Both the position numbers and the translations under genes were made by a program. Of a DNA stretch of 44,600 nt, positions 2,528 through 32,747 are shown piece by piece. The stretch's first letter is position 1. Each line of letters opens with the position of its first letter. A model generated the notes under the pieces. The model ran no database searches. It saw only the letters and a list, made by a program, of their open reading frames with translations, and was not told the DNA's origin. Where the stretch lies: contig CAYWZD010000003.1 in the NCBI GenBank assembly GCA_964462755.1, forward strand, positions 1 to 44,600, given 5' to 3'. The DNA is from an uncultured Victivallales bacterium (GTDB lineage: Bacteria > Verrucomicrobiota > Lentisphaeria > Victivallales > UBA1829).

Positions 2528-3343
2528 TCACGGATATTCGCCGACGCCATGAGCGGTGCTGTAACGGTTCGTCGCAAAATTAATCCGGACCGTCGGATCG
2601 GCATTGGCCATGTTCGCATTCACACCGAAGCAATAATCGATCCGCTTGGTGAAAAGCGACCAATTTCCGTCGGTTCCGGTATTGGCGCCGATGGTCCCGG
2701 TACTGTAATTCATATATCCCCGGATGATTCCATAGTAGGTATACATGGGAGAGGAAACCTTGCCGGCGGAACCATCGGCGTGCACAATGTTCGCGCAATT
2801 GTTATGGCGGTTTCCGATCGGATAATTCGTGATGGTGCCGATGGCCTGTCCCCGGTTGCCGTCTTCATCGCTGTCGCCCGCGAGAATCAGTTTCGAAGGC
2901 ATGATCAGGCTTGACAACTTGAGATCGGAGTACAATGTCTCGTTCAGGCCGATGGAGAGGAGATTCTGATCAAACCTGAATTGGCTTCCCCATACAGGAG
3001 TCAGCAGCGACTGGTTGACTTTGCTGGACGGACAGAGGAAAGGCTTTATCACCGACAGCAGTTTCGAAACACTCCCGGTCGTCTGCCAGTCTCTGATGAA
3101 ATAAGGTCCGAACACATATATTCTGTAGGAAGTCGGAGCAGGCGGCGGCAGGTAGTCCCTGTAGTCCAGCGCATATCCCTGATAACCCAGACCGATGCTT
3201 TTGACCAGATTCAGGCAGGCAGTGGTGCGGGCCGATTCCCGGGCACGATTCAGGGCCGGAAGCAGCATCGCCGCCAGAATCGCAATGATCGCAATCACGA
3301 CCAGGAGTTCTATTAATGTGAAATTCTCTCTCGGTTTTCTCAT
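2528..3343 (-). CDS. Prepilin-type N-terminal helix protein, H-X9-DG family (pseudopilin-like)
   Basis: N-terminus [37 protein letters not shown]-terminal [12 protein letters not shown] (H-x9-DG). RBS GGAGGG sits 5-10 nt upstream of ATG 3343, which is preferred over the ORF-track start 3355. Confidence 0.9.
3239..3322 (-). repeat. Dispersed ~84-nt repeat encoding the prepilin helix (copy 1 of 4)
   Basis: Encodes [26 protein letters not shown]. It shares a 27-nt identical run (ttcacattaatagaactcctggtcgtg) with the copy at 31953-32036. Confidence 0.8.
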
Positions 3344-3376
3344 ATTTCCCTCCATTTTTCAGTGTTTCTGAAATCA

Positions 3377-3405
3377 ATTATATAAGATTTTTCATGGAAT
3401 GTCAA
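3377..3405 (-). promoter_or_regulatory. Consensus sigma70-type promoter for the pseudopilin operon
   Basis: On the minus strand: TTGACA, 17-nt spacer, TATAAT. Confidence 0.65.
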
Positions 3406-3434
3406 TTGAAAATTCCGACAAACATAGGTATAAT
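3406..3434 (+). promoter_or_regulatory. Sigma70-type promoter for the AraC gene
   Basis: TTGAAA, 17-nt spacer, TATAAT. It abuts the divergent -35 box. It lies inside the ORF-track 5' extension, which supports the start at 3457. Confidence 0.6.
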
Positions 3435-3456
3435 AAAGACAAAACAGAGGTATTTC

Positions 3457-4476
3457 ATGGAAATTTTAAGTTTTTCCCGCTATTTCCGAGAGGAGCAATT
3501 CCCGATTTCCGTAACGGCGATGCCGGGAAACGAACTTGTACAGAAAAGACCTCTCACCTTCCATACCCATGAGTTTTCGGAACTGGTCCTGGTGGCAAAA
3601 GGGACGATCGTGCATCAGTGCGGAACAGAAACAGTCCGTTTGAAAGCAGGAGACTTTCTGCTGATCCATCCGGGCGATTCGCATGGATACGCTCAGCCGA
3701 GCCGGGATTTCCTGCTGTATAACCTGCTGTATAACGCGGACATTCCCGTGCCGATGCTGCTGGTCAGCGACCTGCCGTTCATCCGGAAAGTGTATCCCGC
3801 CCAGTTCAGCATTCCAACGATACGCCATAAGGAAATTTTTCATATTTCAGGACGGAATCTCGAACGGGTCGTCCAATCTCTCGAAGAACTCAACGAGGAA
3901 GTGAAAGCGCGGGAAATCGGAAACCACATTCTGATCATCTCGCTTTTCATGGAAATCATCGTGCGTCTGGCACGCTCCTGCAGGGACAGCAGCGAAAAAC
4001 CTTCGGACTGGGCTTTGGAAAGAGTCGTCAGCTATCTGCAATGCCACTGCGGAGGGAAAATCAAACTCGGACAGCTGGCCAGAAACATGGGGATGTCCGA
4101 AAGGACCCTCACCCGCCGGTTCAAGTCGGCTTTCGGAACGGGCCCGATCGATTATCTGACAACACTCCGGGTACGTCATGCCGTGGAACTGCTGCAGGAT
4201 CCGAACCTGAAACTGGAAGCCGTCGCACAGGAATGCGGATTCTGTGACGGCAGTCACCTCTGGAAGGTGCTTCAGCGAAAACTGAAGAAGACTCCGGCGG
4301 AAGTCCGCCGGGATTACAGCCTGATGAAAAAGACTTCCGCCGCACCTCCCGGAACGGAAGGAACGGCGAAAACCAAGCCCATGGGAAAAACCGTCAGCGG
4401 AGTTCGAAAACCCCGGCCGCCAGAGGCGGAAGGGTCCATTCGCCCCGGCCGTCGGAAAGCGGGAGGTTCTTCTTGA
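3457..4476 (+). CDS. AraC-family transcriptional regulator (cupin sensor plus dual HTH) with a ~50-aa basic tail
   Basis: Cupin-like HTHEFSELVLVAKGTIVHQ. C-terminal AraC HTH LGQLARNMGMSERTLTRRFKSAFG...ECGFCDGSHLWKVLQRKLKKTPAEVR. RBS AGAGG lies before ATG 3457. Confidence 0.9.
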   Translation: MEILSFSRYFREEQFPISVTAMPGNELVQKRPLTFHTHEFSELVLVAKGTIVHQCGTETVRLKAGDFLLIHPGDSHGYAQPSRDFLLYNLLYNADIPVPMLLVSDLPFIRKVYPAQFSIPTIRHKEIFHISGRNLERVVQSLEELNEEVKAREIGNHILIISLFMEIIVRLARSCRDSSEKPSDWALERVVSYLQCHCGGKIKLGQLARNMGMSERTLTRRFKSAFGTGPIDYLTTLRVRHAVELLQDPNLKLEAVAQECGFCDGSHLWKVLQRKLKKTPAEVRRDYSLMKKTSAAPPGTEGTAKTKPMGKTVSGVRKPRPPEAEGSIRPGRRKAGGSS

Positions 4477-6457
4477 ATCCGAATTCCGGGAGAGGAACCG
4501 CCTGCGTCCATTTCTTATCAGGCATTGTGATTGACGCCTTTTCAGGACAGCGCTGATCGTTGGCGAGGAAAAGATAGCTTTTGCCTCCGACCGTCTTGAT
4601 GGCGGCATGGATCGCCGGCTGCTTTGCCGCATCGACCAGCACATCCTTTGTGTTCGGTTCAACCAAAATCGGGTCCAGTGCACGGACCTCCTTCACGAAC
4701 GTGGTCAGAAGCCGCACGATCTCGGGACGTTCGGACGCGCGATATTTCTTCCGGTCCTTATTGGTACGTTCGTCCCAGGAATAGATTCCCAGCCCGTTGG
4801 CGCCGGAAGCGATGGCGATCACCGTCATGCAGCGGAGTTCCTCAGGGGTGGGGATTTTGGGCTCATAACAGCCCAGAACGGTCCAGACCGGCTTCAGTCC
4901 GAAACTGGCCTCGGCCGCATTTCTGGTAAGATCGGCGACAGCCCGGAGGGAGACGTTCGGAACCGGATAGGGATCGCAGCCGACGATGTCGCAGGTCGGA
5001 GCCGTGTTCTTCATGTGCTGTTCACGGCACTGCACGGTGACCACGGGAAATTCTCCGTCCGCGCTCCGGATGAAGTTATAGTTGTCGCGCAGTCCTTCCC
5101 AGTCGCGCCACGGTTCGTCCGCGCCGTACCAGAAAAGCATTTTCGGCAGGGAACGGTAAAGGTTCACGTATTCAAACGCGTTGGGTTCTTTACCATTGAC
5201 GCCGAAATGGAGGAACAGTTTGTTTTCGGCGGCTTTGTCCGTCCACTTTTTCATCATCGGAATATCGCGCGAGGGAATGCCGAAGAAGGGACAGTTCAGA
5301 TCCTTGGGACCGGCCGTGGTGAACCCGATCCCCGCAATCTGCGGAAGGTCCTCGGCCGTCACGGCGTAGAGAAGAATCGGGAACATCTTCTTTCCCTCAT
5401 AGGAGATCGACTTGTCCGGATTGATGCGGACCTTGCCGTCACGCGGAACCGGACGGTTGCTGTAACGTTCGACCGTGTTGAAGACTTCCTTCCCGCCGGC
5501 GTAAACCCTGACATAGAGCGGACGGATGGAGCTCCAGATTTTCGGCATGGGGATTTCCATGTGGATGGGACCATGAGTGGAAAAGTCCTGCGTCTTCACA
5601 ACAGGCGTTCCCTCCAGAATCACCGTCACGGTGATCGGAAGAGGAAGCGACGGATCGATCTTGTCCAGCGTCAGCACCATTTTATTCTGCCAGGGAAGCT
5701 GGTTCAGATACGGTTTCATAACCGGCGCCTGTCCGGGATTGTGAACACCCGAACGGATGCGGAGTCCGGCCACACGCGCCTGCGTCACATTGTGGAAAAG
5801 GCGGGTCAAGCCCTTGCCGAGCGTCATATACTGCGGACCGTCCCGGAGCAGTTCGCATTCGCGGTCGATTCCGCCGCTGACCCAGCTCCGGAGGATTTTG
5901 TCATGTTCGTCATACGTGAACGCCACATGGTTCCAGCGTCCGGGAATCATCGGAAGCAGGCCGTTGAAGGGAATGCTGAGAGGATAATAGTTCAGCCTTT
6001 TCTTCGCCATTTCAGGCTCGACAAAGATCTTCTCTTTCGGAAAGTTCAGCCAATGCCCCTGGACACATCCGTTTTTGAACCCCAGATTCCCGAACTTGCC
6101 GTTCAGGAAAAAATCCGAAGTCAGAACGCCCTCCGGTTTGACCCATGCTTCGAGCGTCACTCCTTTTCCGCGAAGGACATTTTCATCGCCGGAATAATTC
6201 AGATTGATCTCCCCCTTTTGGGTGCTGTCGAACTCGATTACTTCACCCATTTCAGGGTCCTTGACTATTTTTCCGCCAAGAAGTTTCGGACTCGTTCCGG
6301 AAACGGTTTCCTTCAGCGTGCCGTTGACCGGGAGGACCATCAGACAGTTATCCTTGTCCTTTCCCCATTCCGCGGGCTTTTCGAGTTGTGCGAAGACACT
6401 TCCGGCGGACAGCATCAGTCCGGCGGACAGAAACACAGGTGTGAAAGACTTCTTCAT
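4394..6457 (-). CDS. Secreted LamG-like plus uncharacterised GH-like (TIM-barrel-like) protein
   Basis: Signal peptide MKKSFTPVFLSAGLMLSAGSVFAQ. LamG-like GVTLEAWVKPEG...RWNHVAFTYD. C-terminal half carries the YGADEPW, GCDPYPV and PTPEELRCM..ASGANGLGIYSWDE motifs shared with CDS 15043-18381. RBS AGGAGAA. Confidence 0.85.
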   Translation of the reverse strand: MKKSFTPVFLSAGLMLSAGSVFAQLEKPAEWGKDKDNCLMVLPVNGTLKETVSGTSPKLLGGKIVKDPEMGEVIEFDSTQKGEINLNYSGDENVLRGKGVTLEAWVKPEGVLTSDFFLNGKFGNLGFKNGCVQGHWLNFPKEKIFVEPEMAKKRLNYYPLSIPFNGLLPMIPGRWNHVAFTYDEHDKILRSWVSGGIDRECELLRDGPQYMTLGKGLTRLFHNVTQARVAGLRIRSGVHNPGQAPVMKPYLNQLPWQNKMVLTLDKIDPSLPLPITVTVILEGTPVVKTQDFSTHGPIHMEIPMPKIWSSIRPLYVRVYAGGKEVFNTVERYSNRPVPRDGKVRINPDKSISYEGKKMFPILLYAVTAEDLPQIAGIGFTTAGPKDLNCPFFGIPSRDIPMMKKWTDKAAENKLFLHFGVNGKEPNAFEYVNLYRSLPKMLFWYGADEPWRDWEGLRDNYNFIRSADGEFPVVTVQCREQHMKNTAPTCDIVGCDPYPVPNVSLRAVADLTRNAAEASFGLKPVWTVLGCYEPKIPTPEELRCMTVIAIASGANGLGIYSWDERTNKDRKKYRASERPEIVRLLTTFVKEVRALDPILVEPNTKDVLVDAAKQPAIHAAIKTVGGKSYLFLANDQRCPEKASITMPDKKWTQAVPLPEFGFKKNLPLSDGRGEWTLPPLAAGVFELR

Positions 6458-6473: not shown

Positions 6474-7904
6474 TTATGGATTCAATAACGTTTTATTCAA
6501 ATAATCGGCACGCAATTCCTGCGTCAGCAGGTCGCAATTCATCAGATCCGGAAGAATCTCTTTGCGGAACGATTCATCGGTCCGTTTTCCCGAACGGAAT
6601 GCCTGAAGGGAATCCGCCAGTTTCTTGAAGGCCGGCTCCAGACTCGTCCGGAAAAAGACGGGATCCCCCAGTTCGGGATCATTCCAGTTTTCGGACAGCC
6701 GTTTGCTGTCCGACTCGAACTTCGCGGCGGCCTGATCCGCAAGGAACTTCCTCGCCTGATCCACGATCTCCGGCGGAATCTTTCCCCAGACGAGTTCGCC
6801 CATCCGTCCGAGTTCGTGGACACGTCCGCCCCACGTGATTCCACCCGCGGGAGTCCAGCGGATCACGTTGAAACGCCAGTTCTTTCCGGTATTCCACGGA
6901 AGGACATCGTAAAAGAAGCTCCACGGAATGAATACGCCTGTCACCATTTCTTTCCCGACGCAGACGGTCCGGACATCGACCGCTCCTTCCATTTTCCGGT
7001 AATGCCGGTTAAAAGAACCCTTCGGATAAAAATCAACCTTGCCGCCCGGCAGATTCAGTATCATCTGATAGTAGTCTTCCGTCTCCATTCCAGGCGAAAA
7101 GAAGATTTCCAGCGCTCCGGCGCCGAAGCCTGCCGCACGGCATTTTTCCAACTCGGGCTCTTCGCAGCGGACATAGAGATACAGTCCGCGCGGATCTGCC
7201 AGAAAGAGGAAGGAGGTGTGCTTGAGATAAAACTCGAGGTTCTTGTTCCCGGCCGCAAGACGTTCCACGGTGGCATCGGCCGTCAATTCTGCCTGAGCCG
7301 CAAGATCATACGGGATAAAGGCATCAGCCCCTTTCCTGTTTCCGAGAGGACCGAACCGGAACGATCCGGCATCCGGCGGCGCTTCCGGAACCCATGCGAC
7401 TTCGAGCGTGTTCCGCTTGAATGGCGACTTCAGACGTTCAGCCTCTTCCCACACGATCCGCGCCGATTCGGAAAGGTTCAGAAGAAGAAGATCGTTCGCC
7501 ACCCCGCGGAGAACGGCATACCTCGCCGATGGAGCCAGTTTCGGCAGTTCCTCCGAACGGCGGAGTTCATCGCGAATCCCCGCGGAATCCAGTTTTTTCA
7601 AGCGAAAAAGAAGGGGCAGTTCCAATCCGACTTCGGGCGGGAGCGTTTTGCATGCCGCCAGTTTTTCCAGCGTCTGCATGTTTTCCGTCTTGCAGCCAAG
7701 CCAGACCAGTTTCCGGAAGAATTCCAGACGTTTTTCCGGAGAGAGTTTTTCGACAGCGGACAAAGACGTCATCCCCTCGCGGAGAGCATCCGCATAATTG
7801 TAGGCGGCCATGCTCTTCCGGAGGGTTGCCAACGGGTCAGCACCGAAAACAAAACCGGAAGCCAGCAGGAGGAAAATACTGAAAAGGATGGAATAACACT
7901 TCAT
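6474..7904 (-). CDS. Secreted protein with helical N-terminal region and CBM9-like C-terminal domain
   Basis: Signal peptide MKCYSILFSIFLLLASGFVFGADP. CBM9/DOMON-like stretch LYLYVRCEEPE...ALEIFFSPG...YYQMILN. RBS AAGGAG. The ATG lies 3 nt after the upstream stop. Confidence 0.8.
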   Translation of the reverse strand: MKCYSILFSIFLLLASGFVFGADPLATLRKSMAAYNYADALREGMTSLSAVEKLSPEKRLEFFRKLVWLGCKTENMQTLEKLAACKTLPPEVGLELPLLFRLKKLDSAGIRDELRRSEELPKLAPSARYAVLRGVANDLLLLNLSESARIVWEEAERLKSPFKRNTLEVAWVPEAPPDAGSFRFGPLGNRKGADAFIPYDLAAQAELTADATVERLAAGNKNLEFYLKHTSFLFLADPRGLYLYVRCEEPELEKCRAAGFGAGALEIFFSPGMETEDYYQMILNLPGGKVDFYPKGSFNRHYRKMEGAVDVRTVCVGKEMVTGVFIPWSFFYDVLPWNTGKNWRFNVIRWTPAGGITWGGRVHELGRMGELVWGKIPPEIVDQARKFLADQAAAKFESDSKRLSENWNDPELGDPVFFRTSLEPAFKKLADSLQAFRSGKRTDESFRKEILPDLMNCDLLTQELRADYLNKTLLNP

Positions 7905-7907: not shown

Positions 7908-9770
7908 TCAGCGCTCCTTTCCGCCGGAGCGTTGAACAGAATCCGGCGACAATGCTTTTTGAAGGGTCAGGATATGGCGGATCATCTCCAGACGGAACAC
8001 GTCGAGATTGGCCGTTTCCATCGGGGTCAGCGCCAGAAAACGGAGCGCCTTCTTCCCGGCATAATAAAGATCCGTATTCTTCGGATCGGCCGCGGCTTTC
8101 CGGGCAAGCTGCTGGAGAAGCGTCGCATAACGGATGTCGTCGATGGCCGCACGGAATCCCTCATATTGGAGGGTGTCGATCAAACCGTCCGCGGAGGGAT
8201 AGACGACGGCAAAGGCGCGGAATCCGGTTTTTCCGGTGTTCTCACACCAGATATTGGGCCCGCTTCCTTCGAGGAAGTGATAGTTGCATGTGCCGTCGTA
8301 GTCCGCCTGATACAGATCCATGCCGTGAGACCGGCGCATATAGTCCGGATTTTCGGGACCCGTATGCGGGTTGGCGTAATTCGTAATGCGGTTTCCCATC
8401 ATGTGCCACTTCCGGGCGCTGTCCCTGGAAAGGGTTCCCGCATAGTTGGCAAAATCCTCGTTGTAACCGCCGTATTGAAGATGGCGGTCCTTGGCTGTGG
8501 AAAGAATCTTCATGCCGCGCTCATGCGCCACTTTCCACAGGGGACGCTGTCCCTGAAGGAACTTCATGGAAGGCTCGTCCCATCCAACCGGATAAACCAG
8601 AATGTCTTTGCCCATCACTTCGCGGATCAGGGCCAGTTGAGCATCCATGTCCCGATAGAATTTCTCATCGTATCCGGGCGGACGCTTTTCCGGCGGCTGG
8701 GCGATCAGATACCAGGAAATCAGATTGATTCCTCCCAGCAGGACATCGTGCGGAAATCCGCATTTCTTCATCAGAAGCAGATTTTCGCGGTAGAGACGAT
8801 TCGCCGTTTCCTTCGGAAGTTTGTTCCGTGGATTGGGAGTATCCACGAGCGGATAGGCGAGATTGTGTTCCAGCATGTTTCGATACATGATTTCGCGGCG
8901 TTTCAGGACCAGATCGAAATTGCCGTCCGCCATGCGGAGCTCCTCCACGATCGGCGGCATATACATGGAAACATAGAATTTCTTGTCGGGATCGTATTGG
9001 GTGCCCGGCTCCGGCAGAAAAAACGGCAATACACGAACAGCCAGGGAAAGAGTCTCCAGCGTCTTGCCCCCGGCCTTCAGGGTCAGCGTCCCGGAATAAC
9101 GACCGGGCACGGTGTCCTTCGGAAGGCGGACCGTCAGGAAAAAGCGCTTACGGACACCGGGCTCCAGAGAAAACACGGTCAGCCGGGAAGCATCCCGAAC
9201 CGGAGCCAGCACATAATTGAAGCGGCCGTATTCGAGTTCTTCCGGATAACTGACCCAGAGATATCTGTCGCCGACCCGGAGAAAGTTGTCCTTCTTCACC
9301 GTGTCCGTTTTCAGCAGGGCTTCATCATGGAGAAGAAGCTCCGGGACCAGTTCCTTTCCGAGCGGGTCGGCGAAGTAGGAACTCCAGGCGGTCCCGGCCT
9401 GATACCAGTAATGAACGATGCGGAGATCAATCGCGAACGCCGGGATGGTGTTTTTGCCGTCGGAAAGAGGGGAGACTTCGAAGACCGCCTGTTTTTCCAT
9501 CTTTACCGGGAACAGCAGAAAGGCGGCGCTGCCGATCTCATTTCGGGCGGTCAGAATGGACAGCGTCTTTCCGGTGCGTCCGTCACGGAGGGGTTCTCCG
9601 GGCAGATGGCGGTAAGGAGAAAACGCCGGGATTTCGACGCTGAAAACGGCGCCGCAGGGGGCATCCGCGCCGGAAACGCCTTTCAACTCGGGGTAAAGCG
9701 AAAGCGGGTTTTTTTCCGACGCCGCCAGCCAGAAAGGTACAAAGAGAAGGAATGAGAGAATGTATTTCAT
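7908..9770 (-). CDS. Secreted putative glycoside hydrolase (DUF4091/GH123-like; family assignment tentative)
   Basis: Start moved to MKYILSFLLFVPFWLAASE (signal peptide, RBS AGGAGA). Motifs VGWDEPS and IDDIRYATLL recalled from DUF4091-type proteins. Confidence 0.75.
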   Translation of the reverse strand: MKYILSFLLFVPFWLAASEKNPLSLYPELKGVSGADAPCGAVFSVEIPAFSPYRHLPGEPLRDGRTGKTLSILTARNEIGSAAFLLFPVKMEKQAVFEVSPLSDGKNTIPAFAIDLRIVHYWYQAGTAWSSYFADPLGKELVPELLLHDEALLKTDTVKKDNFLRVGDRYLWVSYPEELEYGRFNYVLAPVRDASRLTVFSLEPGVRKRFFLTVRLPKDTVPGRYSGTLTLKAGGKTLETLSLAVRVLPFFLPEPGTQYDPDKKFYVSMYMPPIVEELRMADGNFDLVLKRREIMYRNMLEHNLAYPLVDTPNPRNKLPKETANRLYRENLLLMKKCGFPHDVLLGGINLISWYLIAQPPEKRPPGYDEKFYRDMDAQLALIREVMGKDILVYPVGWDEPSMKFLQGQRPLWKVAHERGMKILSTAKDRHLQYGGYNEDFANYAGTLSRDSARKWHMMGNRITNYANPHTGPENPDYMRRSHGMDLYQADYDGTCNYHFLEGSGPNIWCENTGKTGFRAFAVVYPSADGLIDTLQYEGFRAAIDDIRYATLLQQLARKAAADPKNTDLYYAGKKALRFLALTPMETANLDVFRLEMIRHILTLQKALSPDSVQRSGGKER

Positions 9771-9786
9771 GATGTCTCCTGACAAA

Positions 9787-10512
9787 TTATTCGTATAAAG
9801 CGTTTCCATACTGCTGATTGGCAATATTGGTCAACCCCTGACTCAACGAAGGGTTGGCCTTTCTGGCCTCGATATGTCCGTCCGTGAAAAGGGCCTCGAC
9901 GGAAGTGTCGTGCCGGAAATCAAGATATCCGGCGCTGTATGCGGTATGGGAAAGACGTTCGAAAACATTGCTGCCCTTGCCGTCGGCCATCTGAAGGGTG
10001 CTGGAAGGTTTTTTGATGGAAACAGGACGGAGGGCGGGCAGCAGAGTGCCGGTCGTCATGTTGGTCGTGCCGTTGGAATTGATCTGCGGATGGACGGACT
10101 TGTTGATGTTGTAAAAGCTCCAGCCGAGCCAGCCGGTTTCGGTGAAGTCGCTCCGCCCCCCGCAGCGGTAGACATTGCCGCTTCTGGGAAACTCGAACGG
10201 GGTGCGAACCTTTCCGAAAATATATGGCGAAAGAAAATTGAAGTAATAGGTCGTACCTCCCTGATAGGACATCGACGGACAATAGTATTCCTTGTTGTCG
10301 GCGCAATAGTATGTGGATGCCAGCGACCACTGTTTCAGGTTGCCGGCACAGGAGGAGCGGTAGGCCATCTGGCGTGCCCGGTTCAGTGCCGGGAGAAGCA
10401 TTCCCGCCAGAATTGCAATGATCGCTATCACAACCAGCAATTCTATTAATGTAAATTCCCGCACCCCAATCCCGCATGGATTCAACCTCCGGAAAGTTCT
10501 GTTCATCCTCAT
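9787..10512 (-). CDS. Prepilin-type N-terminal helix protein, H-X9-DG family
   Basis: [49 protein letters not shown]-terminal [21 protein letters not shown] before ATG 10512 is preferred over the ORF-track start 10635. Confidence 0.9.
10372..10455 (-). repeat. Dispersed prepilin-helix repeat (copy 2 of 4)
   Basis: Encodes [28 protein letters not shown]. The nucleotide sequence is alignable to the other three copies. Confidence 0.75.
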
Positions 10513-13053: not shown

Positions 13054-13097
13054 AGGTGGTAACTAAAAAACATACCACTAAGAAAGAGTTTGCCGCC

Positions 13098-18448: not shown

Positions 18449-18455
18449 AAAAATT

Positions 18456-21842: not shown

Positions 21843-21882
21843 GGCAGTGAGCGGCTCTCTCTCCGCTCACTGCCTCATTTTT
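21843..21882 (+). terminator. Rho-independent terminator of the secretin operon
   Basis: 12-bp stem GGCAGTGAGCGG / CCGCTCACTGCC, 8-nt loop, then TCATTTTT. The 3' arm overlaps the last codons of the convergent AraC gene. Confidence 0.8.
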
Positions 21883-22750: not shown

Positions 22751-22806
22751 AGTATATGACAGGAAAATTTTCAATACTACATTTTATAAAAAAAAGGAAT
22801 TTCAGC

Positions 22807-24582: not shown

Positions 24583-24596
24583 AACGATTTTCTTTC

Positions 24597-24724: not shown

Positions 24725-24750
24725 TGACCTAGAAACAAGAGAGAATATTC

Positions 24751-25779
24751 ATGGAAAAAGGCTGCAACATCCGCGAAGTCGCCACAAAGGCGGGAGTGTC
24801 GCCCGGCACGGTTTCGAGGGTTCTGAACAACCGCATGGGCAAGATGCAGGTTTCGGAAGCTACCCGGAAACTGATCTTTCAATGCGCCGAGGAACTGGAT
24901 TACCAGCCGAACATCAATGCGCGTCGTCTCTTTTCCAAACGCAGCGGCGTTCTCGGCTTCGTGATTCCTTCCTTCCGGGAAGTCCACAAGAACGTTTTCG
25001 GAGACATCCATATCATCAACCTTCTGAACGGAATCGAAGAAGTTCTGGCTGTCCGCAAATACAAGCTCATGGTCCTTTTCAAAGACCGTGAGTTCATCGA
25101 CTCGCACGATTATCTCTCGCTTTTCCGGAGCAAACAGGTGGACGGTCTGCTGATCTGGGGCTCCCACCGCAGTGAAACCTTCTGGAATGAACTCTCCGAA
25201 CGCAGCTATCCGCACGTTTTCGTCACAACCTATCCGGATGGCCTTCAGCGCATGGATTCCGTGTTCGCCGCCGACTATACAGGCGCCGGATATGACATCA
25301 TGAACTATCTGCTGAAGAAAAAATACAAAAACATCCTCTGGGCAAAACCTCAGGACGACACCTCGATTTCCTCTGAAATCAAGGCGGGAATCGACAAGTC
25401 GCTCCGGGAAAATCCGGGAATGTGCCAGTTCCTGGAAATTCCCTGTCCGTATTCCCAGTTCGCAGGGTATGAACTGATGGAGAAAATTCACCGCACCCGT
25501 CTGGATTTTTCCGTTGTGCTGTTCACCAGCCTTGAAACTGCGACCGGAGCCATGGACTACTGCGCCAAGCATGGAATCCGGGTCCCGGAAGAGATCGCCG
25601 TGGCGGCGTGCGACAGCCCCGCAGCCAATGAGTCCGTAACCCGGATCACAGCGCCCGCCGTGGACGACTGTCTGCTCGGAATCAATGCCGTGGAGGCGCT
25701 GGTTGCATCGATCGAAAACAGGGAGTGCCGTCAGAACAACCGCACCAGAATGATCCTGAACTCCGGAGACACCGCATAA
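24751..25779 (+). CDS. LacI-family transcriptional regulator
   Basis: N-terminal HTH NIREVATKAGVSPGTVSRVLNN, followed by a PBP1 sugar-binding fold. Confidence 0.95.
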   Translation: MEKGCNIREVATKAGVSPGTVSRVLNNRMGKMQVSEATRKLIFQCAEELDYQPNINARRLFSKRSGVLGFVIPSFREVHKNVFGDIHIINLLNGIEEVLAVRKYKLMVLFKDREFIDSHDYLSLFRSKQVDGLLIWGSHRSETFWNELSERSYPHVFVTTYPDGLQRMDSVFAADYTGAGYDIMNYLLKKKYKNILWAKPQDDTSISSEIKAGIDKSLRENPGMCQFLEIPCPYSQFAGYELMEKIHRTRLDFSVVLFTSLETATGAMDYCAKHGIRVPEEIAVAACDSPAANESVTRITAPAVDDCLLGINAVEALVASIENRECRQNNRTRMILNSGDTA

Positions 25780-25847: not shown

Positions 25848-28800
25848 ATGAGAAGAACAATCCAGGCATCGCTTCTGCTGGTCTTTGCCGTTCTGTTCCG
25901 GGCGGAAGCGCAGAACACTCAAATCGACTTCGCAAATCCGGAAATCCCCGCCATGAAAGCCAACAGCAGGATCAAGGTGGAGGACGGCATCCTGAAAATC
26001 AACAACGGAGGAACTGCCGTCTTCCATATCGGGTCGGCAAATCCGCTCAGGATCACCTTCCGGACGAAAGTCGTGAAGGTTATGGAGAGCAAAAACGCAC
26101 CGTGCTGGATTTTCAATCTCTACGGTATGGATACGGAAGACGGTTTGTTCCGCTGGCGGAAAGACAATGTGCTGGAATCCTATTTCTATAAGAACAAGCA
26201 GCGCAAAGGCGGCATCATCACCAAAGTCGCGTTCATCGACGGAAAGTGGTTCAACGTCGAAATCATTCTTCTGAAAAACCTTGTCAGCGTCAAACTCGAC
26301 GGCACGGAAGTCGCCAACGGCAAGCATCCCGGATTCCTGCCGCTGAAAGAATTTTCCTTCTCGGCTTTCAATATGGACTGGGAACTCGACGATCTGGCCG
26401 TAGCGGAAATCCCGCAGGAAAAACAGCAGACGGTTGAAAATCCCACCTTCTCCCTTGACTTCAACGGGACATCCTTTGCGGTCAATGACAAAGGGGAAAA
26501 GATTTCTCCGCTGAAGGAAGGCGCCCCCCGCTTCGTTCCCGGAATCGACGGCAAGGGAATTTCCCTGGCAAAAGGGGGAAAAGAGACGCTTTCCTATCCT
26601 CTGACCAATCCGTTCAACAGCAAGGTCGGGGGAATCCTCTTCTGGGTCAAGTCCGATCCCAAAGACGGAACCCCCATTTTCCGTATGACGGACGGCAAAA
26701 ATGAAAAAATCTCCGCCCATCTGCTCGGAAATAAGCGTATCATCATCAACGTCGCCCGCTCGGATACAAAACAGGGGCTCGGATACAACCGCTCTTTTCC
26801 CGGTGAACTCGGAGACTGGGTTCTTGTCGCCCTGACCTGGGACGAGGAATCGAATTCAAAGTTCTTCATCAATTCCCTGCCCTATACCGTCTGCTTCAAT
26901 CCCGGACAGCGCATGCCGGACTTTCTCAATGCAGATGTCAACGGGATCACCCGTCTGGAAATCCCGGGCGGAAAAGGCGACTGGGCGCTGGATCGCGTCC
27001 GTCTCTTTCACCGCCCCCTGAAAAACAGCGACGTCTATGACGAATACCGCCGCTTCATGCCGTTCGACATGGTGATGGAACGCACGATCGTTCCCGCCGG
27101 TTCACCCGTGAAACTTTCGGTTCAGGTCGCGCCCGGCGGATACTATACGCGTCCGATGCCGGTGGAGAAATCCGAACTCAGCAAGGGCAAGGGAGAATTT
27201 CAATTCCGCCTTCTGGACAAGGACGGAAAAGTCCTTCTTGACGAGAAGAAAAGCGCTCTCGTGGACAAACCGCTCGACCTAGTTCTCAAGGATGTCACTC
27301 TCGGCACAGGCAATTACAGGCTCGAATGCACCGTCAACAATGCCTACAGACGCACCTTCCGGATCGACAGCTTTACATCCGACTACAAAGCGGCGGTCTC
27401 GAAAGACGACATCCGGACCGGAAAACTCCTTTATTCCAAAAAGCTGGACAACCCGAACGATCCCGCCCTCCTCCATCAGGGAACCACTCATCTTTCCCCC
27501 GACAAGTCCTATCTGGAGGCGGGAAACGACAAGACGGACCGCTTCTGCTTTGAAATTCCGTTCCGTCCGGAACAGCTCGGCAAGCCCGTGGTTCTGGACA
27601 TCACCTGGCCGGATGACAAGATGCGCATCATGGGCTGGTATATGTATCCCTACGGTTTCGGCGCCAACCGGGACCGTCTCCAGAGCGGCGTTTCCAGCGG
27701 GAACGAAATCCCGAACTCCGGCAAAATGCAGACCACCCGTCATATTTTCTATCCCGGAACCTCCAAATATCTTTTCGAGGCGCGCACACTGGCGGCCGGA
27801 ATGCCCGCCGCCGTGGCGGAAGTTAAAGTGTATGAAATCGAAGGCGGTCTGCCCGCGTTGAAAATTCACCGCCCCGCAAATATGCCCTGCCGCAAGTTCG
27901 GCTTCTACGATGAGGACCAGACCTTCACCAACAACCTCAATGTCGACGTCATGAACCGCAAATCGCCGGCCTATCCGGAATTCAGCAGGAAATATCCGTC
28001 CGAAACAGCCTTCTTCACCGATGAAATCATGCACTATTTCGACTACACCGGAATGAACTCGCTGCACTCTCCCCTCTGGCGTTATTCCATCAGTTATTTC
28101 CCGGTCGAGGGTCAGACCGGCAACGGAATGTTTCCCGGAGGCGGCGGCGCGCTCGGATATGCGTTCGACGCCTTCGCACAGCATGGTAAAAAATTCATCG
28201 CCATCATGAACTACTCCAACCTTCCGGATCTGCTTCAGCTGGATAAGATCGAATCGGACTACCGGAAGGAAGGACTTGAAACCCTTGACAAATTCGGCGA
28301 CGGCATTCCTCAATACAGCGCGGGAATCCACCGTGCGAATATCTGCCATCCGAAGGTGCTTGCCCTCTTCGCCTCCTACTTCGAGGACCCCGTCAAACGC
28401 TATGGGAACAGCCCCGGTTTCGACGGCATCGAATACTGGCTCAACCATTTCGGAAACTGGGGTTCTCTGGACTATGGATACGATGACTACACCGTCCGGA
28501 AGTTCAGCCGCGAAACCGGAATCAAAGTTCCGGAAAAACTCAAGGACCGCTATGCCTTCCTGACGGGCGAAAAACGGAAGGAATGGCTGAAATGGCGTTC
28601 GGAACAGGTGACCCATGTCGTGCAAATGGTCCGCGACATTCTCAACAAATACAATCCTGCCCTGAAACTCTACCTCGGTGTCAGCCAGACGCCCGACAAC
28701 TATGAACAATACGGCATCGACCTGAAGTCGATCAAGAAGATTCCGAACGTCGCAATCTCGGTCGTCCGTTCCCCGACCGCCTACCGCCACGCCTTCCACT

Positions 28801-30149
28801 GGGGCAAGCCCGAAACCACGGACAATGAGGAGCTTTACAATCTCGCGGACAAAGACATCCAGAATTACCTCATGGACGGCGCCGCCGGAGTCGTGATCTC
28901 CGCAAACACTTATTTCGAGACATTCGTGCATCCTCTGAACAAGGATTACGTCTGCTATTTCGAAAATGCGGACATCAAACCGCACGGACGTTTCTGTCTC
29001 CGCGAACCCGCATTCGCGATCGGCGCGTTCGACGCTCTCGAATACGTCTCCGGCGGACAGCCCCTCGGAAGCATCGGGCGCGACGCCGAAACCCGCGAAT
29101 TCGCACAGGCTTACGGTGCGCTTCCCGCGAAGAAGTTCAACCTTGTCCCCGGCATCACCGATCCAGCCGTTGCGCGCTTCCTCCAGACGCCGGAAGGCAC
29201 CTACTTCTATGTCGTCAACCTCTTCCATGACGATGTGACGGTCCGTATTGACTTCAGCCGGAACCTTCCCTACATCGATCTCTCCACGGATCAGAAATTG
29301 TCCGGCGGAACGATCGTCCTGAAGCCGTTCCAGCTCCGTTCCTTCCTCTTCCCGAATGAAAAAGTCGAACTCAAAAAACTGGAATTCGTCAGCGTCGGAA
29401 AAGAGACCGTTCCCTTCTACCGGAAACGGATCGCCGCGCTGAAAGCCGCCGCGGACATGCTGGAAAAAGGAAAAGTCGATGTCGCCGAGGAACGCAAAGA
29501 CATCGCCCTTCTCGAAAAAGCGTTTGCGGAAAATCGTTTCGCGGAGGTGACGCGCCTCGCCTTCTGCCGCCGCATGAACCAGCTTCTGATCAAGGAAAAG
29601 AACATTGCCCTTCTCATCCGGCAGCAGAAAATGATGGATCAGGGACATTACGCGGTCAACTGCGGGTCGTCTTCCTTCTACACGGCCCCGGACGGACGCT
29701 TCTTTTTCCCGGATCAGGCATTCAACGGCAAATACGGCTATTTCGGAACGTACAATTCCATCACACGGGAAACGAAAGGGCTGCACGGCACGGATCTCCC
29801 GGAACTTTTCAAAACCGAAGCCTACTCTCTTCATGGGTATAAATTCAAACTTCCAAACGGGATTTACAAAATAATCTTTCACATGAAGGCCGGGTTCAAT
29901 CCGAACTACAAGCCGGGCGTCTACCGTTTCACTGTTTCGGCCAACGGAAAACCGATCCTGAACAGCATCGACCTCCATGAAGCCTCGGGCGGGGATTTCA
30001 ACAAGGCGCTGAAATTCACCGCCGGAGGAATACCCGTCACAAACGGCGAACTCGTCCTGAACTATCGGATCAATCCGGACGAACGCGATAAAACAAAAAA
30101 CACGACCGTCTGCCTCGCGAACGGCATCGAGATCATCAAAGAAAAATAA
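25848..30149 (+). CDS. Giant secreted protein: DUF1080/LamG-like, Laminin_G_3-like, large central region of unknown family, C-terminal malectin-like domain
   Basis: Signal peptide MRRTIQASLLLVFAVLFRAEAQ. LamG pattern GGILFWVKSDP...GDWVLVALTWDEESNSKFFIN. Malectin pattern YAVNCGSSSFYTAPDGRFFFPDQAF...YKFKLPNGIYKIIFHM. RBS GAGGAGAA. Confidence 0.9.
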   Translation: MRRTIQASLLLVFAVLFRAEAQNTQIDFANPEIPAMKANSRIKVEDGILKINNGGTAVFHIGSANPLRITFRTKVVKVMESKNAPCWIFNLYGMDTEDGLFRWRKDNVLESYFYKNKQRKGGIITKVAFIDGKWFNVEIILLKNLVSVKLDGTEVANGKHPGFLPLKEFSFSAFNMDWELDDLAVAEIPQEKQQTVENPTFSLDFNGTSFAVNDKGEKISPLKEGAPRFVPGIDGKGISLAKGGKETLSYPLTNPFNSKVGGILFWVKSDPKDGTPIFRMTDGKNEKISAHLLGNKRIIINVARSDTKQGLGYNRSFPGELGDWVLVALTWDEESNSKFFINSLPYTVCFNPGQRMPDFLNADVNGITRLEIPGGKGDWALDRVRLFHRPLKNSDVYDEYRRFMPFDMVMERTIVPAGSPVKLSVQVAPGGYYTRPMPVEKSELSKGKGEFQFRLLDKDGKVLLDEKKSALVDKPLDLVLKDVTLGTGNYRLECTVNNAYRRTFRIDSFTSDYKAAVSKDDIRTGKLLYSKKLDNPNDPALLHQGTTHLSPDKSYLEAGNDKTDRFCFEIPFRPEQLGKPVVLDITWPDDKMRIMGWYMYPYGFGANRDRLQSGVSSGNEIPNSGKMQTTRHIFYPGTSKYLFEARTLAAGMPAAVAEVKVYEIEGGLPALKIHRPANMPCRKFGFYDEDQTFTNNLNVDVMNRKSPAYPEFSRKYPSETAFFTDEIMHYFDYTGMNSLHSPLWRYSISYFPVEGQTGNGMFPGGGGALGYAFDAFAQHGKKFIAIMNYSNLPDLLQLDKIESDYRKEGLETLDKFGDGIPQYSAGIHRANICHPKVLALFASYFEDPVKRYGNSPGFDGIEYWLNHFGNWGSLDYGYDDYTVRKFSRETGIKVPEKLKDRYAFLTGEKRKEWLKWRSEQVTHVVQMVRDILNKYNPALKLYLGVSQTPDNYEQYGIDLKSIKKIPNVAISVVRSPTAYRHAFHWGKPETTDNEELYNLADKDIQNYLMDGAAGVVISANTYFETFVHPLNKDYVCYFENADIKPHGRFCLREPAFAIGAFDALEYVSGGQPLGSIGRDAETREFAQAYGALPAKKFNLVPGITDPAVARFLQTPEGTYFYVVNLFHDDVTVRIDFSRNLPYIDLSTDQKLSGGTIVLKPFQLRSFLFPNEKVELKKLEFVSVGKETVPFYRKRIAALKAAADMLEKGKVDVAEERKDIALLEKAFAENRFAEVTRLAFCRRMNQLLIKEKNIALLIRQQKMMDQGHYAVNCGSSSFYTAPDGRFFFPDQAFNGKYGYFGTYNSITRETKGLHGTDLPELFKTEAYSLHGYKFKLPNGIYKIIFHMKAGFNPNYKPGVYRFTVSANGKPILNSIDLHEASGGDFNKALKFTAGGIPVTNGELVLNYRINPDERDKTKNTTVCLANGIEIIKEK

Positions 30150-30161: not shown

Positions 30162-30923
30162 ATGAAAAAGAAATTCCTCATGCTTCCGGTGTTCGCAGGG
30201 CTTCTCGGTCTTTGCGCCTGCGCCCATACGGAATCCCTCGTGGCGGAATACACCGCGTCCGATCCCGGCACGGATCCCTCCTCCAAAGCATGGCAGCGGA
30301 CGGATGCCTATCCGTTCCTTCCCTATTCGGCAGGCCCGTGGTATGAGGAAATCGAACAGGCTTCCGGAATGAAGGGACACGTTCTTGAACCGGGCAACGT
30401 CCGTCTGCTCTGGAACCGGAAATTCCTGTACGTATGTATCACAATGAAAGACAGCGATCTGGCGGATCAGTCCCTCCGCGACCAGACCCATATTTTCACG
30501 CAGGCAGACACCGTGGAATTGTTTCTCCGGGAGGAAAACCATCCCTGCTACTGGGAGATTTACGGAAGCGCCGCCGGACGCAAAACCTGTTATTTCTTTG
30601 CCGGACGCGGTCTGCTCGGTCTGCCGGGAAACAATGTCTATGAACATCAGATCGAGGTCCGCGCCGTCTGCGATGGCACGCTCAACAAAGGAACCGACAG
30701 GGACCGTTCCTGGACGCTCTTCTTCAAGATCCCCGAGGAAAACCTGACGAGGCACGGAACGGAATGGAAACCGGGCGCGAAGTGGAGAATCCTCTTCGTC
30801 CGCCACAATTATTCCGTGTATCTCCCCAGCCGGGAGGTGAGCGTGTGTCCGGCGTTCAATGCGAAAAATCCGCACTTTTACGAGGAATATGGAAAACTGA
30901 TTCTGGCTCCGCCGGAAAAATGA
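30162..30923 (+). CDS. CBM9-like lipoprotein
   Basis: MKKKFLMLPVFAGLLGLCAC lipobox-like signal. CBM9/DOMON-like WNRKFLYVCITMKD...ADTVELFLREENHPCYWEIY. Confidence 0.8.
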   Translation: MKKKFLMLPVFAGLLGLCACAHTESLVAEYTASDPGTDPSSKAWQRTDAYPFLPYSAGPWYEEIEQASGMKGHVLEPGNVRLLWNRKFLYVCITMKDSDLADQSLRDQTHIFTQADTVELFLREENHPCYWEIYGSAAGRKTCYFFAGRGLLGLPGNNVYEHQIEVRAVCDGTLNKGTDRDRSWTLFFKIPEENLTRHGTEWKPGAKWRILFVRHNYSVYLPSREVSVCPAFNAKNPHFYEEYGKLILAPPEK

Positions 30924-30945
30924 TAAACTCGAAGGATTGGTTCTC

Positions 30946-31917
30946 ATGGAAAACAGTGTGAAACATTTCAAACTCTCCTATCCCGCGTGGAGCGTCACGT
31001 GGAACGGAAAAACCATCTGCAAGCGTCCGACGGAGGACTTCATCACGCAGATCGAGGACTTGAAATCAGTCGGCATCGACGAGCTGATGCTGACTGGATA
31101 TCATTGCGAAGAACCTGCGGATTTCGACATGGATGAGGAAACGCTCCGGCTCGGAAACCTTCTGCGCGAACGGGGCATGAAGGGGGCGCAGCACCATTCT
31201 CTCACCAGCTTTTACACCACCCCCGGAGAATCGCAGGACGAAGTGATCCGCCGGATGAAAAAATGCATAGACTACACGGCGAACCTGAACACGGATGTCG
31301 TAGTCTTCCACGCAATGAAATTTCTGGGAAGCACGGATGCCGGAAAGGATGTCGAGCGCGACCTGAAAGAAGCCATCCGCAAGACCTCTGCGGACGCGGT
31401 CATGGAAACGCTCTGCTCCAATCTTCATGCCGCCGGAGAATACGCGAAGGAACGCGGCGTGCGGATCGCCGTCGAAAATCTCGACCGTTTCACGCCTTGG
31501 TGCGGGATGGAACACCTTCCGGAAATCGTGCGGGGCGCGGACTCGGAGGCGGTCGGGTTCTGCCTCGATACAGGCCACGCGTGGTGCGGCGGAATCGATC
31601 CGGCGAAGTGGGTGCCGGTCATGGGAGACAAACTCTTCACAACGCATGTCCACGACAATCACGGGCTTCCGGAAAAATTCATCGGATACGACGGCCTCAT
31701 CGACGTCGTCAACGAGCCTCTGGACGAACATCTCCCGCCCGGATTCGGCACGATCTCATGGAAGGATTTCATCCGCGCCCTCTGGAAACTCGGATATGAC
31801 CGGACCGTCAATTTCGAGTCCAACGGCTGGCCCGGTCTGGAAAAGAAGGATTCTTACGAGTGCGCCATCCAATTCTGGAGAACCTGCGAACTGCTTTCGA
31901 TCCAACGGATAAAATGA
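30946..31917 (+). CDS. Sugar phosphate isomerase/epimerase (xylose-isomerase-like TIM barrel)
   Basis: [22 protein letters not shown] and HVHDNHG metal-ligand pattern. RBS GAAGGA before ATG 30946; the ORF-track TTG at 30937 is less likely. Confidence 0.85.
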
Positions 31918-31931
31918 GAAGGGAGTGCATC

Positions 31932-32747
31932 ATGAAGAGAGAAAAGAGGGGGTTCACATTAATAGAACTCCTGGTCGTGGTTTCAATCATCGCGATTCTG
32001 GCGGGACTTCTGCTTCCGGCGCTGACCCGGGCGCGCGACATGGCGAAACGCATCAGCTGTCATTCCAACGTCCGGAACCTGAACCTTTGGAACATCTCCT
32101 ATTCCAGTGATTCCGGGGGTTGGTCGACTCCTTATGCCCTGCTGGGAAAAAGATGGTATGACCTTTTCAACACGCTCGGTTATTCGGGAACAGTCTCCGT
32201 GACGGTCAATTCGAATAAGAAAAACATCAATTACATCTTCCTCAAGATGCGCTGTCCGTCGAACCGTCTGACGCAGGAAGGCGTGGTGGCTGCCCATCCC
32301 GCCGACTGGTTCAATTATTTCAGCACGATTGCCTCTTACGGACTCAACGGCAACATGGGATATACTGAATCCTCGTCGCCCCTTTCCTCGGTCAACCTCA
32401 TCAAAACCGCCAGAGTCAAACATCCATCCCGCCGTCTGGTCTTCGCCGACAAGGCGGAAGCCGTGGCATCAAGCGACCTGATGGCATGTATCGACGGCTC
32501 AAACCGTCCGATTCACGACCGTCACAACCGTTCGACTCCCATCGGTTTTCTGGATGGACATGCGGAATCGCGCGACCCGGCCAAGGTCAATCCGCTCGGA
32601 ACGGTTGTCGGTTCCTGCAATCCTTATAACAACAGCATCGTTACACCAACCATCGTATCAGGAACGCTCAATACGTCTCCCGTCGACCTCCGGTATCTGT
32701 GGGGGATGAACGGAGGCATCGGCGACTACCGTTACGATTACCCGTAA
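31932..32747 (+). CDS. Prepilin-type N-terminal helix protein, H-X9-DG family (canonical Gly at -1)
   Basis: [37 protein letters not shown]-terminal [25 protein letters not shown] before ATG 31932. Confidence 0.9.
31953..32036 (+). repeat. Dispersed prepilin-helix repeat (copy 4 of 4)
   Basis: Encodes [28 protein letters not shown]. About four fifths of nucleotides are identical to copy 1 by manual count. Confidence 0.8.

Follow-up and report, generated by a model that had tools for sequence, protein, structure and literature searches.

Pilin-like H-X9-DG genes in modules of a sugar-type regulator and exported proteins in a Victivallales genome, and their possible role as cargo-specific pseudopilins

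Five regulated modules and their pilin-like genes

The DNA analysed here is a 44.6 kb window (the whole stretch, positions 1 to 44,600 of contig CAYWZD010000003.1) of one Victivallales genome. It carries 30 genes, of which four encode proteins that look like type IV pilins and belong to the H-X9-DG, or DUF1559, family. The window is made up of five regulated modules (M1–M5), four with exported proteins and one, M4, without, and there is exactly one pilin gene in every module with exported proteins and none in the module that lacks them. The link between regulator, pilin and exported protein is real and not an accident of copy number, as the neighbourhoods and the pilin–partner pairs of other genomes described below show. 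A preliminary description, made from the letters of the window, had listed the four coding sequences as sharing a prepilin-like helix with Glu at +5 and a C-terminal H-x9-[DA]G motif, on which translations, motif scan and scan with a hidden Markov model (HMM) now agree. It had also placed each of them at the head of, or inside, an operon of signal-peptide proteins; this is borne out by operon-like gaps of 14–51 bp between the pilin genes and their neighbours, with adjoining genes whose signal peptides are visible in the sequence.

Genes were called with a self-trained codon model, and the Pfam-supported gene set of the window was reproduced. AraC, LacI and GntR regulators were labelled with locally built HMMs and signal peptides by a crude call. 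At the protein level the window is ~96% identical to a contig of assembly GCA_037975395.1, with which it also shares synteny. Its features, in order, are:

3..1784, minus strand: large protein with signal peptide, cut by the window edge (594 aa present), from the codon-model call; closes the pilin 1 operon and is the partner of that pilin
1826..2476, minus strand: 216-aa signal-peptide protein (signal peptide seen in the sequence), between pilin 1 and the 594-aa gene
2528..3343, minus strand: pilin-like H-X9-DG gene 1, from the family profile; leader MRKPREN with Asn at -1
3377..3405, minus strand: sigma-70 promoter-like site TTGACA-17-TATAAT before pilin 1; a consensus match only, perfect at 12/12
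3406..3434, plus strand: promoter-like site for the AraC gene, 11/12 match, back to back with the pilin 1 site
3394..4476, plus strand: AraC-family regulator (cupin/AraC_binding plus HTH_18, Pfam), divergent from pilin 1
4394..6457, minus strand: 687-aa signal-peptide protein with a weak Laminin_G_3 match; fourth gene of the pilin 2 operon
6474..7904, minus strand: 476-aa signal-peptide protein, family not recognised; third in the pilin 2 operon
7908..9824, minus strand: signal-peptide protein of ~620 aa, the signal peptide following an internal Met; second gene of the pilin 2 operon
9787..10512, minus strand: pilin-like H-X9-DG gene 2, from the family profile; Glu at -1
10706..11533, plus strand: PocR-AraC regulator (Pfam), divergent from pilin 2
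13056..14156, plus strand: GntR regulator with helix-turn-helix (Pfam) and LacI-type sugar-binding domain (local HMM)
14223..15023, plus strand: pilin-like gene 3, from the family profile; 25-residue leader, Lys at -1, motif degenerated to AG
15043..18381, plus strand: 1112-aa signal-peptide protein with an N-terminal carbohydrate-binding module (CBM); cognate partner of pilin 3
18782..20182 and 20203..21819, plus strand: tandem secretin-family genes (Pfam); neighbours of the pilin 3 module, not members of it
21867..22709, minus strand: AraC regulator, divergent from the GH35 gene
22756..24582, plus strand: GH35 beta-galactosidase without signal peptide (Pfam); a regulated module without exported protein and without pilin
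24751..25779, plus strand: LacI regulator (Pfam), at the head of the pilin 4 operon
25848..30149, plus strand: 1433-aa protein with signal peptide; contains Laminin_G_3 and malectin domains and a GHL10-like region
30162..30923, plus strand: 253-aa protein with lipoprotein-type signal peptide and CBM9-like domain
30937..31917, plus strand: xylose-isomerase-like TIM-barrel protein without signal peptide
31932..32747, plus strand: pilin-like H-X9-DG gene 4, Gly at -1; fifth gene of the LacI-headed operon
32699..39647, plus strand: rest of the pilin 4 operon, with a HAD hydrolase, an ADP-ribosylglycohydrolase and two ABC-importer proteins

In M1 a divergent AraC gene faces pilin 1, which is followed by signal-peptide proteins of 216 and at least 594 aa, and in M2 a divergent PocR-AraC gene faces pilin 2, followed by signal-peptide proteins of ~620, 476 and 687 aa. 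The GntR-type gene of M3 lies on the same strand as pilin 3 and the 1112-aa protein and ends 67 bp upstream of the pilin gene, with no promoter-like site in between. M5 begins with the LacI gene, again on the same strand, and continues with the 1433-aa protein, the CBM9-like lipoprotein, the TIM-barrel enzyme, pilin 4, the HAD and ADP-ribosylglycohydrolase proteins and the ABC importer. M4 consists of the AraC and GH35 genes. The pilin is therefore the first structural gene behind the regulator in three of the four cases, and the earlier statement that each pilin lies beside a regulator of its own holds for these three (AraC, PocR-AraC and GntR, all by Pfam); the fourth pilin stands deep inside its LacI-headed operon. 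The two importer genes of that operon (34850–37480 and 37446–39647) encode an 876-aa fusion of SBP_bac_1 solute-binding and BPD_transp_1 permease domains and a 733-aa protein with a long N-terminal extension ahead of its permease domain.

The partners had been described as proteins with LamG-, CBM- or glycoside hydrolase (GH)-like domains, which is true of some of them. The malectin, Laminin_G_3 and CBM9 domains of the pilin 4 module are above the Pfam cut-offs, most other matches of this kind are below them, and the partners of pilin 1 have no LamG, CBM or GH match in Pfam. The protein encoded by 3–1784 has no Pfam match at all, and the 216-aa protein next to it matches neither Pfam nor NCBIfam. 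The 216-aa protein is a shortened paralogue of the N-terminal domain encoded by 3–1784 (59% identity to residues 48–238). Gene 3–1784 was absent from the earlier gene list, and the plus-strand open reading frames at 195–1070 and 1275–1718 are antisense artefacts of it. The ~620-aa protein of M2, whose ortholog is called at 620 aa in the sister genome, resembles the GH123 structures 5l7r and 5l7v weakly in sequence (E=1e-3), and PDB sequence searches with the other large partners gave nothing or weak matches only. The 1112-aa protein of M3 has a weak CBM_4_9 match in Pfam, and the N-terminal domain of its model matches CBM22, CBM4 and CBM16 structures in Foldseek (E ~1e-8, TM-score ~0.7 on the target). 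This model was built on a shallow alignment and has a mean pLDDT of 52, so that only the N-terminal CBM match was used; its central region (475–821) is unreliable and may be catalytic.

All four pilin translations carry the helix FTLIELLVV[IV][AS]IIAILA..LLP.L.RAR with Glu at +5, and a six-frame motif scan and a scan by a family HMM each found exactly these four family members in the window. The family profile has 226 positions and was built from 81 homologues, mostly annotated PF07596. The four proteins match it over ~205–215 positions with E-values of 1e-41 to 1e-58, and on the strength of this full-length match they are divergent relatives of DUF1559 by homology. With PF07596 (DUF1559) itself, pilins 1 and 3 score 22.0 and 21.0 bits, below the cut-off of 23.3, and a Pfam scan gives no match to this model for pilins 2 and 4. 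Scores with the general prepilin models are 21.6–33.1 bits for TIGR02532 (cut-off 16.3, exceeded by all four) and 20.8–34.9 bits for PF07963 (cut-off 21.2), so that every one of them reaches or exceeds the cut-off of one model or the other. The best NCBIfam similarities are to GspG and ComGC and are limited to the first ~60 residues; the four proteins score 27.6–33.9 bits with GspG (TIGR01710), far from its equivalog cut-off of 88.85, and only residues 1–60 align. No match to TIGR04294 was reported at E ≤10, nor was any for canonical HLDGH relatives, and this model is apparently absent or filtered from the library copy. The closest database relatives of the window pilins come from Lentisphaerota and Victivallales and are annotated as DUF1559 or 'prepilin-type processing-associated H-X9-DG protein'. 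The family is very large, with at least 7697 relatives among 8000 scored candidates; an exact-match look-up of pilin 4 found no identical protein on record.

Outside the helix the four window pilins are ~31% identical. Within it, F1, E5 and ~22 hydrophobic residues are nearly invariant, ~20 positions being invariant over 81 homologues of ~35% overall identity, and judging from this alignment the conservation exceeds what a plain membrane anchor would need. The family shares a CxNNLKQ element, the Cys43–Cys104 pair, which probably ties the helix to the loop after it, and an RH-x9-DGH hairpin. Among the 81 homologues H180 of this hairpin never varies, and conservation of D190 and G191 is 90% or higher. 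The H-x9-DG motif is found in 60 of 101 family members as compared to a mean of 2.1 (maximum 7) after shuffling, and so is not due to chance. Three of the four window pilins have it in its strict form and pilin 3 has AG. The change from DG to AG is found throughout the pilin 3 clade (window 14223–15023; 9181–9981 of comparison locus L087; 9161–9982 of L088), and distant pilins beside the same partner family (L089, L090) retain HLDGH. The Asp thus seems to be dispensable in at least one lineage. Recent gene conversion among the four helix-coding regions was considered and rejected, the DNA being ~78% identical and differing at third codon positions.

An AlphaFold2 model of pilin 1 (pLDDT 70, with helix and core above 80) consists of a 50-residue N-terminal helix (10–60), a short helix and then 6–8 beta strands. 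In this model the His of the motif opens one of the strands and the DG occupies the turn of a beta-hairpin.

Neighbours and partners in other genomes

The comparison set was obtained by scanning one genome per species and comprises 80 loci (~1.1 Mb) with 98 further pilin-like genes, 31 of the loci being independent Lentisphaerota loci. Leaving the window aside, the 162 genes immediately next to a pilin (offset 1) include 19 regulators, as compared to 14 among the 539 genes farther away (odds ratio 5, p=1.3e-5). For Lentisphaerota the figures are 18 of 68 adjacent genes and 13 of 193 farther ones (p=1e-4), and in Verrucomicrobiota, Planctomycetota and other phyla a regulator is adjacent in 1 of 94 cases. 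When the three of the window are included, 21 of 22 adjacent regulators lie upstream of the pilin, 14 of these pointing the same way as it, often with an overlap or a gap below 70 bp, and the other 7 divergent. Pfam run on 34 upstream neighbours in Lentisphaerota found Peripla_BP_3 in 11, GntR in 9 and HTH_18 in 5.

The downstream side is distinctive as well. In Lentisphaerota a signal peptide is found in 26 of 46 downstream genes versus 23 of 104 distant ones (p=6e-5), and 22 of the 46 versus 15 of the 104 encode proteins of at least 600 aa (p=3e-5). The Pfam families encountered there are DUF4838 (6), Laminin_G_3 (3), CBM_4_9 (2) and CBM9 (2), together with sulfatase, GH43, rhamnosidase, F5/8-type C and pectate-lyase-like families, and the distant genes of the same loci are a housekeeping mix. 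A genome-wide census of H-X9-DG genes and their neighbours had been proposed at the outset, and the enrichment of regulators and signal-peptide proteins that it was to look for is present in the Lentisphaerota loci of this 80-locus sample. In other phyla (L019–L080) the downstream genes also encode signal peptides more often than distant genes do (27 of 43 versus 61 of 204, or 63% versus 30%, p=8e-5), and here they encode beta-propellers, ECF sigma factors and DUF1501/1549/1553 proteins in place of glycan enzymes. Partners that are exported without being glycan enzymes, as they are outside Lentisphaerota, speak for a function bound up with the exported protein more than for one as lectin. The proposed likeness to polysaccharide utilisation loci (PULs) therefore applies to Lentisphaerota and fails in the other phyla, where the partners do not resemble carbohydrate-active enzymes and adjacent regulators are almost missing.

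Independent public gene calls with precomputed Pfam annotation show the same module in eight more loci. One is a bare three-gene module of GntR with a periplasmic-binding-protein (PBP) domain, pilin and 768-aa protein, embedded in housekeeping genes (L103). Others read LacI, pilin, 1149-aa protein (L102), GntR-PBP, pilin, DUF4838 protein (L088), and GntR-PBP, sulfatase, pilin, 257-aa protein, 1459-aa malectin protein (L104).

We have also asked whether particular pilins and partners belong together. A mirror-tree on 46 pilin–partner pairs from the 80 loci contained one homologous partner pair only and was uninformative because the partners are too diverse; in its place, homologues of single partners were looked up and their contexts read. 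The 1112-aa partner of pilin 3 has nine homologues only, among 5.8 billion proteins, and in all five genomes concerned (four contexts read plus the window) a pilin gene adjoins it. At 96% and 81% partner identity the gene order is GntR, pilin, partner. In two genomes at 53% identity a divergent AraC gene is followed by the partner and then the pilin, so that the order is inverted and the type of regulator has changed. Partner identities of 96, 81, 53 and 53% are tracked by identities of 95, 76, 26 and 26% in the globular domain of the pilin, and when 113 pilin domains are compared, pilin 3 and the two distant pilins find each other, in both directions, as best non-orthologous match.

The pair of pilin 1 behaves in the same way. 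One locus (L081) of a related genome has a pilin 70% identical to pilin 1 followed by a 1135-aa protein, to whose N-terminal half gene 3–1784 is 82% identical, in a different upstream context. The same genome also contains a paralogous pair, at 36% identity for the pilin and 29% for the partner, and these paralogous pilins are mutual best matches. Pilin and partner thus stay together and diverge together across genomes. The modules as such differ among closely related strains. In the sister genome an additional Melibiase_2 (GH27-like) gene lies between the GFO/IDH/MocA and GntR genes (L087 6676–7866 as compared to window 12725–13056).

The proposed role and its alternatives

We tentatively propose, with a confidence that falls somewhat short of even, that each pilin is a cargo-specific pseudopilin which acts as an adaptor or tether for its partner, makes use of a shared machine and is co-induced with the partner. 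The local AraC-, GntR- or LacI-type regulator would switch on the pilin and the partner proteins together, presumably on a common transcript. The pilin helix would insert in the inner membrane, its conserved sequence fitting one common assembly machine, encoded elsewhere, of the kind found in type II secretion systems (T2SS) and type IV pili (T4P). The fast-evolving globular domain would be specific for the co-encoded signal-peptide protein or proteins, and through it the pilin may recruit the partner in the periplasm and carry it to, or hold it at, the cell envelope or surface. The data establish family membership, the architecture of the modules with its statistics, the conserved and co-diverging pairs and a CBM in one partner; co-transcription, the shared machine, a direct contact between pilin and partner and this direction of transport are inferred.

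A number of observations weigh against this proposal, one of which concerns the residue at -1, immediately before Phe1. Classical prepilin peptidases need a Gly, or rarely an Ala, at this position. Pilins 1–4 have Asn, Glu, Lys and Gly (codons 3323–3325, 10456–10458, 14295–14297 and 31950–31952), so that the canonical residue is present in pilin 4 only. Of 38 Lentisphaerota relatives, 3 have Gly and none has Ala, leaving 35 without either, and the residue even differs between 95%-identical orthologues (Lys in one and Asn in the other, or Glu and Lys). In other phyla Gly or Ala is found in 56 of 59 cases, and among the closest database homologues in 34 of 119. Some Lentisphaerota leaders are just three residues long (MRK, MKK). 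The loss of Gly or Ala at -1 puts pilin cleavage and filament assembly in doubt, and implies that this lineage either has a peptidase of relaxed specificity or leaves the proteins uncleaved. On the other hand, the invariance of Phe1 and Glu5 in the alignment argues that pilin-type handling has probably been kept.

Other difficulties lie with the machine and the partners. The shared machine is an assumption, and Pfam finds no assembly ATPase, platform protein or prepilin peptidase among the genes of the 44.6 kb window. No docking domain common to the partners could be detected. Homologues of the pilin 1 partner occur in tandem on six metagenomic contigs, five of them from one sample with a GC content near 46%, with no pilin within the available flanks, which indicates that the partner fold does not require a pilin everywhere; and in one locus (L098) a pilin lies upstream of a partner of this kind but does not co-cluster. 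The co-divergence of pilins and partners could equally mirror a shared substrate specificity and not physical contact. As to structure, the best Foldseek match of the pilin model is the gonococcal pilin, and this is weak (E=0.19, TM-score 0.21–0.34), while a PDB sequence search shows that no solved structure covers the globular domain. Finally, the 80 loci were chosen by similarity to pilin 1, and one subfamily may therefore be over-represented.

An unlikely alternative is that the pilins are periplasmic or surface receptors, anchored in the membrane by their pilin-type helix, which bind the sugar or oligosaccharide of their module and feed an importer or a sensor instead of serving secretion. 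The loss of Gly at -1 suits an uncleaved membrane protein, the Pfam name for DUF1559 is SBP_bac_10, pilin 4 shares its operon with an ABC importer, and the regulators adjacent to the pilins are of sugar-sensing types. There is also a precedent in Sulfolobus, where sugar-binding proteins with class III signal peptides depend on the Bas system and form a bindosome (PMC3047682). However, most modules (M1–M3 of the window, L088 and L103) contain no transporter, just a pilin and exported proteins, and the neighbours in other phyla are not sugar genes. An invariant F1 and E5 would also be hard to understand in such a receptor, a buried Glu being costly for a plain anchor, and neither AlphaFold2 nor Foldseek gives the pilin model a periplasmic-binding-protein fold.

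We regard as slightly less probable still that the pilins form or decorate surface fibres which capture or reel in glycan, their variable heads being lectins for the polysaccharide of the module and the partners being exported independently; such fibres would be a pilus-type equivalent of SusD. Co-divergence of pilin and partner would be expected if both track one substrate, and the helix is conserved as it is in filament-forming pilins. A further point in favour is that PVC bacteria (the Planctomycetes–Verrucomicrobia–Chlamydiae group) are not known to have SusC/D-type uptake. For Planctomycetes it has been suggested that fibres mediate the uptake of polysaccharides (PMC12673574). Against this stands the fact that the globular domain diverges faster than the partner (26% versus 53% identity), which is odd for a lectin that binds the same glycan, and that searches of NCBIfam, PDB sequences and Foldseek returned no lectin or CBM family or fold for the pilin. 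Moreover, the neighbours outside Lentisphaerota are not glycan genes, and the difficulty with Gly at -1 applies equally to fibres.

That there is no functional link, a numerous family having landed near the modules by chance or a conserved 5′ end hitch-hiking with mobile modules, is very improbable: the high copy number of the family (the relatives counted above; 67–74 paralogues per genome in the literature), the strain variability of the modules and the partner homologues without pilins would fit it, but the placement is specific in position and orientation (21 of 22 upstream; p ~1e-5 for adjacency in non-window loci), adjacency to a partner whose known homologues number nine holds in all five genomes read and survives inversion of the gene order, co-divergence rests on reciprocal best matches, the intergenic gaps are operon-like and the DNA of the helix region bears no sign of recent gene conversion. 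What probability remains belongs to mechanisms other than those listed here.

Related systems and the secretin pair

The DUF1559/H-X9-DG family comes in massive numbers of paralogues, and no function has been assigned to it (PMC10632474, PMC2754498, PMC4807772). There are 68 copies in Planctopirus limnophila, two of them scored essential, and 74 in Rhodopirellula baltica. The window pilins resemble the family as defined by DUF1559/SBP_bac_10 (PF07596, TIGR04294) in the helix, the CxNNLKQ element, the Cys43–Cys104 pair and the RH-x9-DGH hairpin, while they are divergent members of it, pilin 3 with AG for DG. Compared to DUF1559 loci of Planctomycetota and Verrucomicrobiota, the Lentisphaerota branch is set apart by its position behind sugar regulators and ahead of CBM- or GH-like exported proteins. 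The sole published hint of a link to glycans that we found comes from Verruconatronum alginivorum, in which a pulG-like pseudopilin with 67 paralogues lies inside an alginate-induced cluster and a further pseudopilin is induced on alginate according to proteomics (PMC13274419). A search of the literature on H-X9-DG, DUF1559 and pilins in Victivallis and Lentisphaerae found no functional study, and we found no systematic published description of the regulator–pilin–partner module, of pilin–partner co-divergence or of the loss of Gly at -1.

The closest functional parallel is found in the minor-pilin/PilY1 sets of type IVa pili (PMC7541494, PMC8833165, PMC9109919). In Myxococcus xanthus several interchangeable and differentially expressed sets of this kind serve a single pilus machine, in which their proteins start off the filament and come to lie at its tip (PMC7541494, PMC8833165, PMC9109919). 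As in our modules, alternative gene sets pair a pilin-like protein with a large (~1000 aa or more) Sec-exported non-pilin protein. The differences are that each window module has one pilin and not four, that there may be tens to hundreds of sets instead of three, and that the partners are glycan-binding or -degrading and under sugar regulators; no machine was seen among the genes of the window. Pfam detected no PilY1/PilC domain in any partner of the window or the comparison loci.

With the pseudopilins of the T2SS (GspG, and GspH–K at the tip) the window pilins share the class III-type N-terminus with F1 and E5, and the task of that system, the passage of folded periplasmic exoproteins through a secretin, is the one that the pilins would have according to our proposal. 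In contrast to GspG, their globular domain is unrelated in sequence and ~100 residues longer, and their genes lie outside a gsp operon. Cargo-specific pseudopilins encoded beside their cargo are, to our knowledge, not part of the T2SS model. The bindosome of Sulfolobus likewise has sugar-module proteins with a pilin-type N-terminus, whose placement on the surface depends on a pilus-like assembly system (PMC3047682); the Sulfolobus proteins are bona fide ABC solute-binding proteins, however, and most modules described here lack a transporter. Bacteroidota PULs, finally, offer the same combination of a substrate-responsive regulator, exported glycan-binding or -degrading proteins and one recurring marker gene per locus. 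In the present case the marker is an inner-membrane pilin-like protein and not a pair of outer-membrane transporter and lipoprotein, and Pfam finds neither a SusC-like TonB-dependent transporter nor a SusD-like lipoprotein among the 30 genes of the window. The window modules are thus not PULs in the SusC/SusD sense.

DUF1559/H-X9-DG is the largest paralogous family in several PVC genomes, and the data bear on the means by which these bacteria, lacking SusC/D-type systems, secrete, present or import what is needed for degrading polysaccharides. A member of the family is now tied to a specific partner and a specific regulator in a pairing that survives rearrangement, and minimal three-gene modules (regulator, pilin and one exported protein) have been defined that are genetically testable. 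If our proposal is correct, exchangeable pseudopilins would encode substrate selection in a type II-like secretion process, which would be a new principle for such a machine, and the pilin gene would be a practical marker for glycan-utilisation loci of Lentisphaerota. A wider version is possible, although we consider it doubtful: the hundreds of H-X9-DG/DUF1559 paralogues of PVC bacteria might be cargo-specific pseudopilins, each inducible export module having its own adaptor that joins a shared T2SS/T4P-type machine and there selects, carries or tethers the exoprotein, and the Lentisphaerota version would be wired behind sugar-sensing regulators and have a Gly-independent leader. Were this so, the family would provide Lentisphaerota with a pilin-tagged counterpart of the PUL, and the Gly-independent leader would imply a prepilin peptidase of new specificity or an assembly without cleavage.

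It had been suggested that the pilins may be coupled to secretion through the orphan secretin pair downstream of the pilin 3 module, and the data do not support this. Both genes encode a secretin domain (PF00263, 32.7 and 49.3 bits versus a cut-off of 27.5), both are far below the equivalog cut-offs of GspD, PilQ and MshL, and the two proteins share 23% identity. Lentisphaeria contain no fewer than 733 full-length relatives (35–43% identity), and in other genomes the pair sits among genes for sulfate assimilation, LexA or DNA ligase, with no pilin, carbohydrate-active enzyme or secretion genes (T2SS, T4P) nearby in those inspected. On contigs with a 96%-identical secretin, similarity to the window starts ~200 bp upstream of the first secretin gene and the pilin 3 module is absent; conversely, the 81% orthologous pilin 3 module has no secretins adjoining. 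The conserved ~200-bp upstream region and the unconserved adjacency indicate that the secretin pair is a conserved, separately transcribed unit, and a module-specific link was rejected. It could still be the outer-membrane pore of the shared machine, with no tie to a particular module.

The tandem arrangement of short paralogous secretins (~436–492 aa followed by 535–590 aa) is conserved across Lentisphaeria (L083–L087) and is unusual. On the contigs with the 96%-identical secretin (L083, compared to window 17600–18620 and 24582–24751) the region downstream of GH35 also differs, methyltransferase and helix-turn-helix genes replacing the LacI module.

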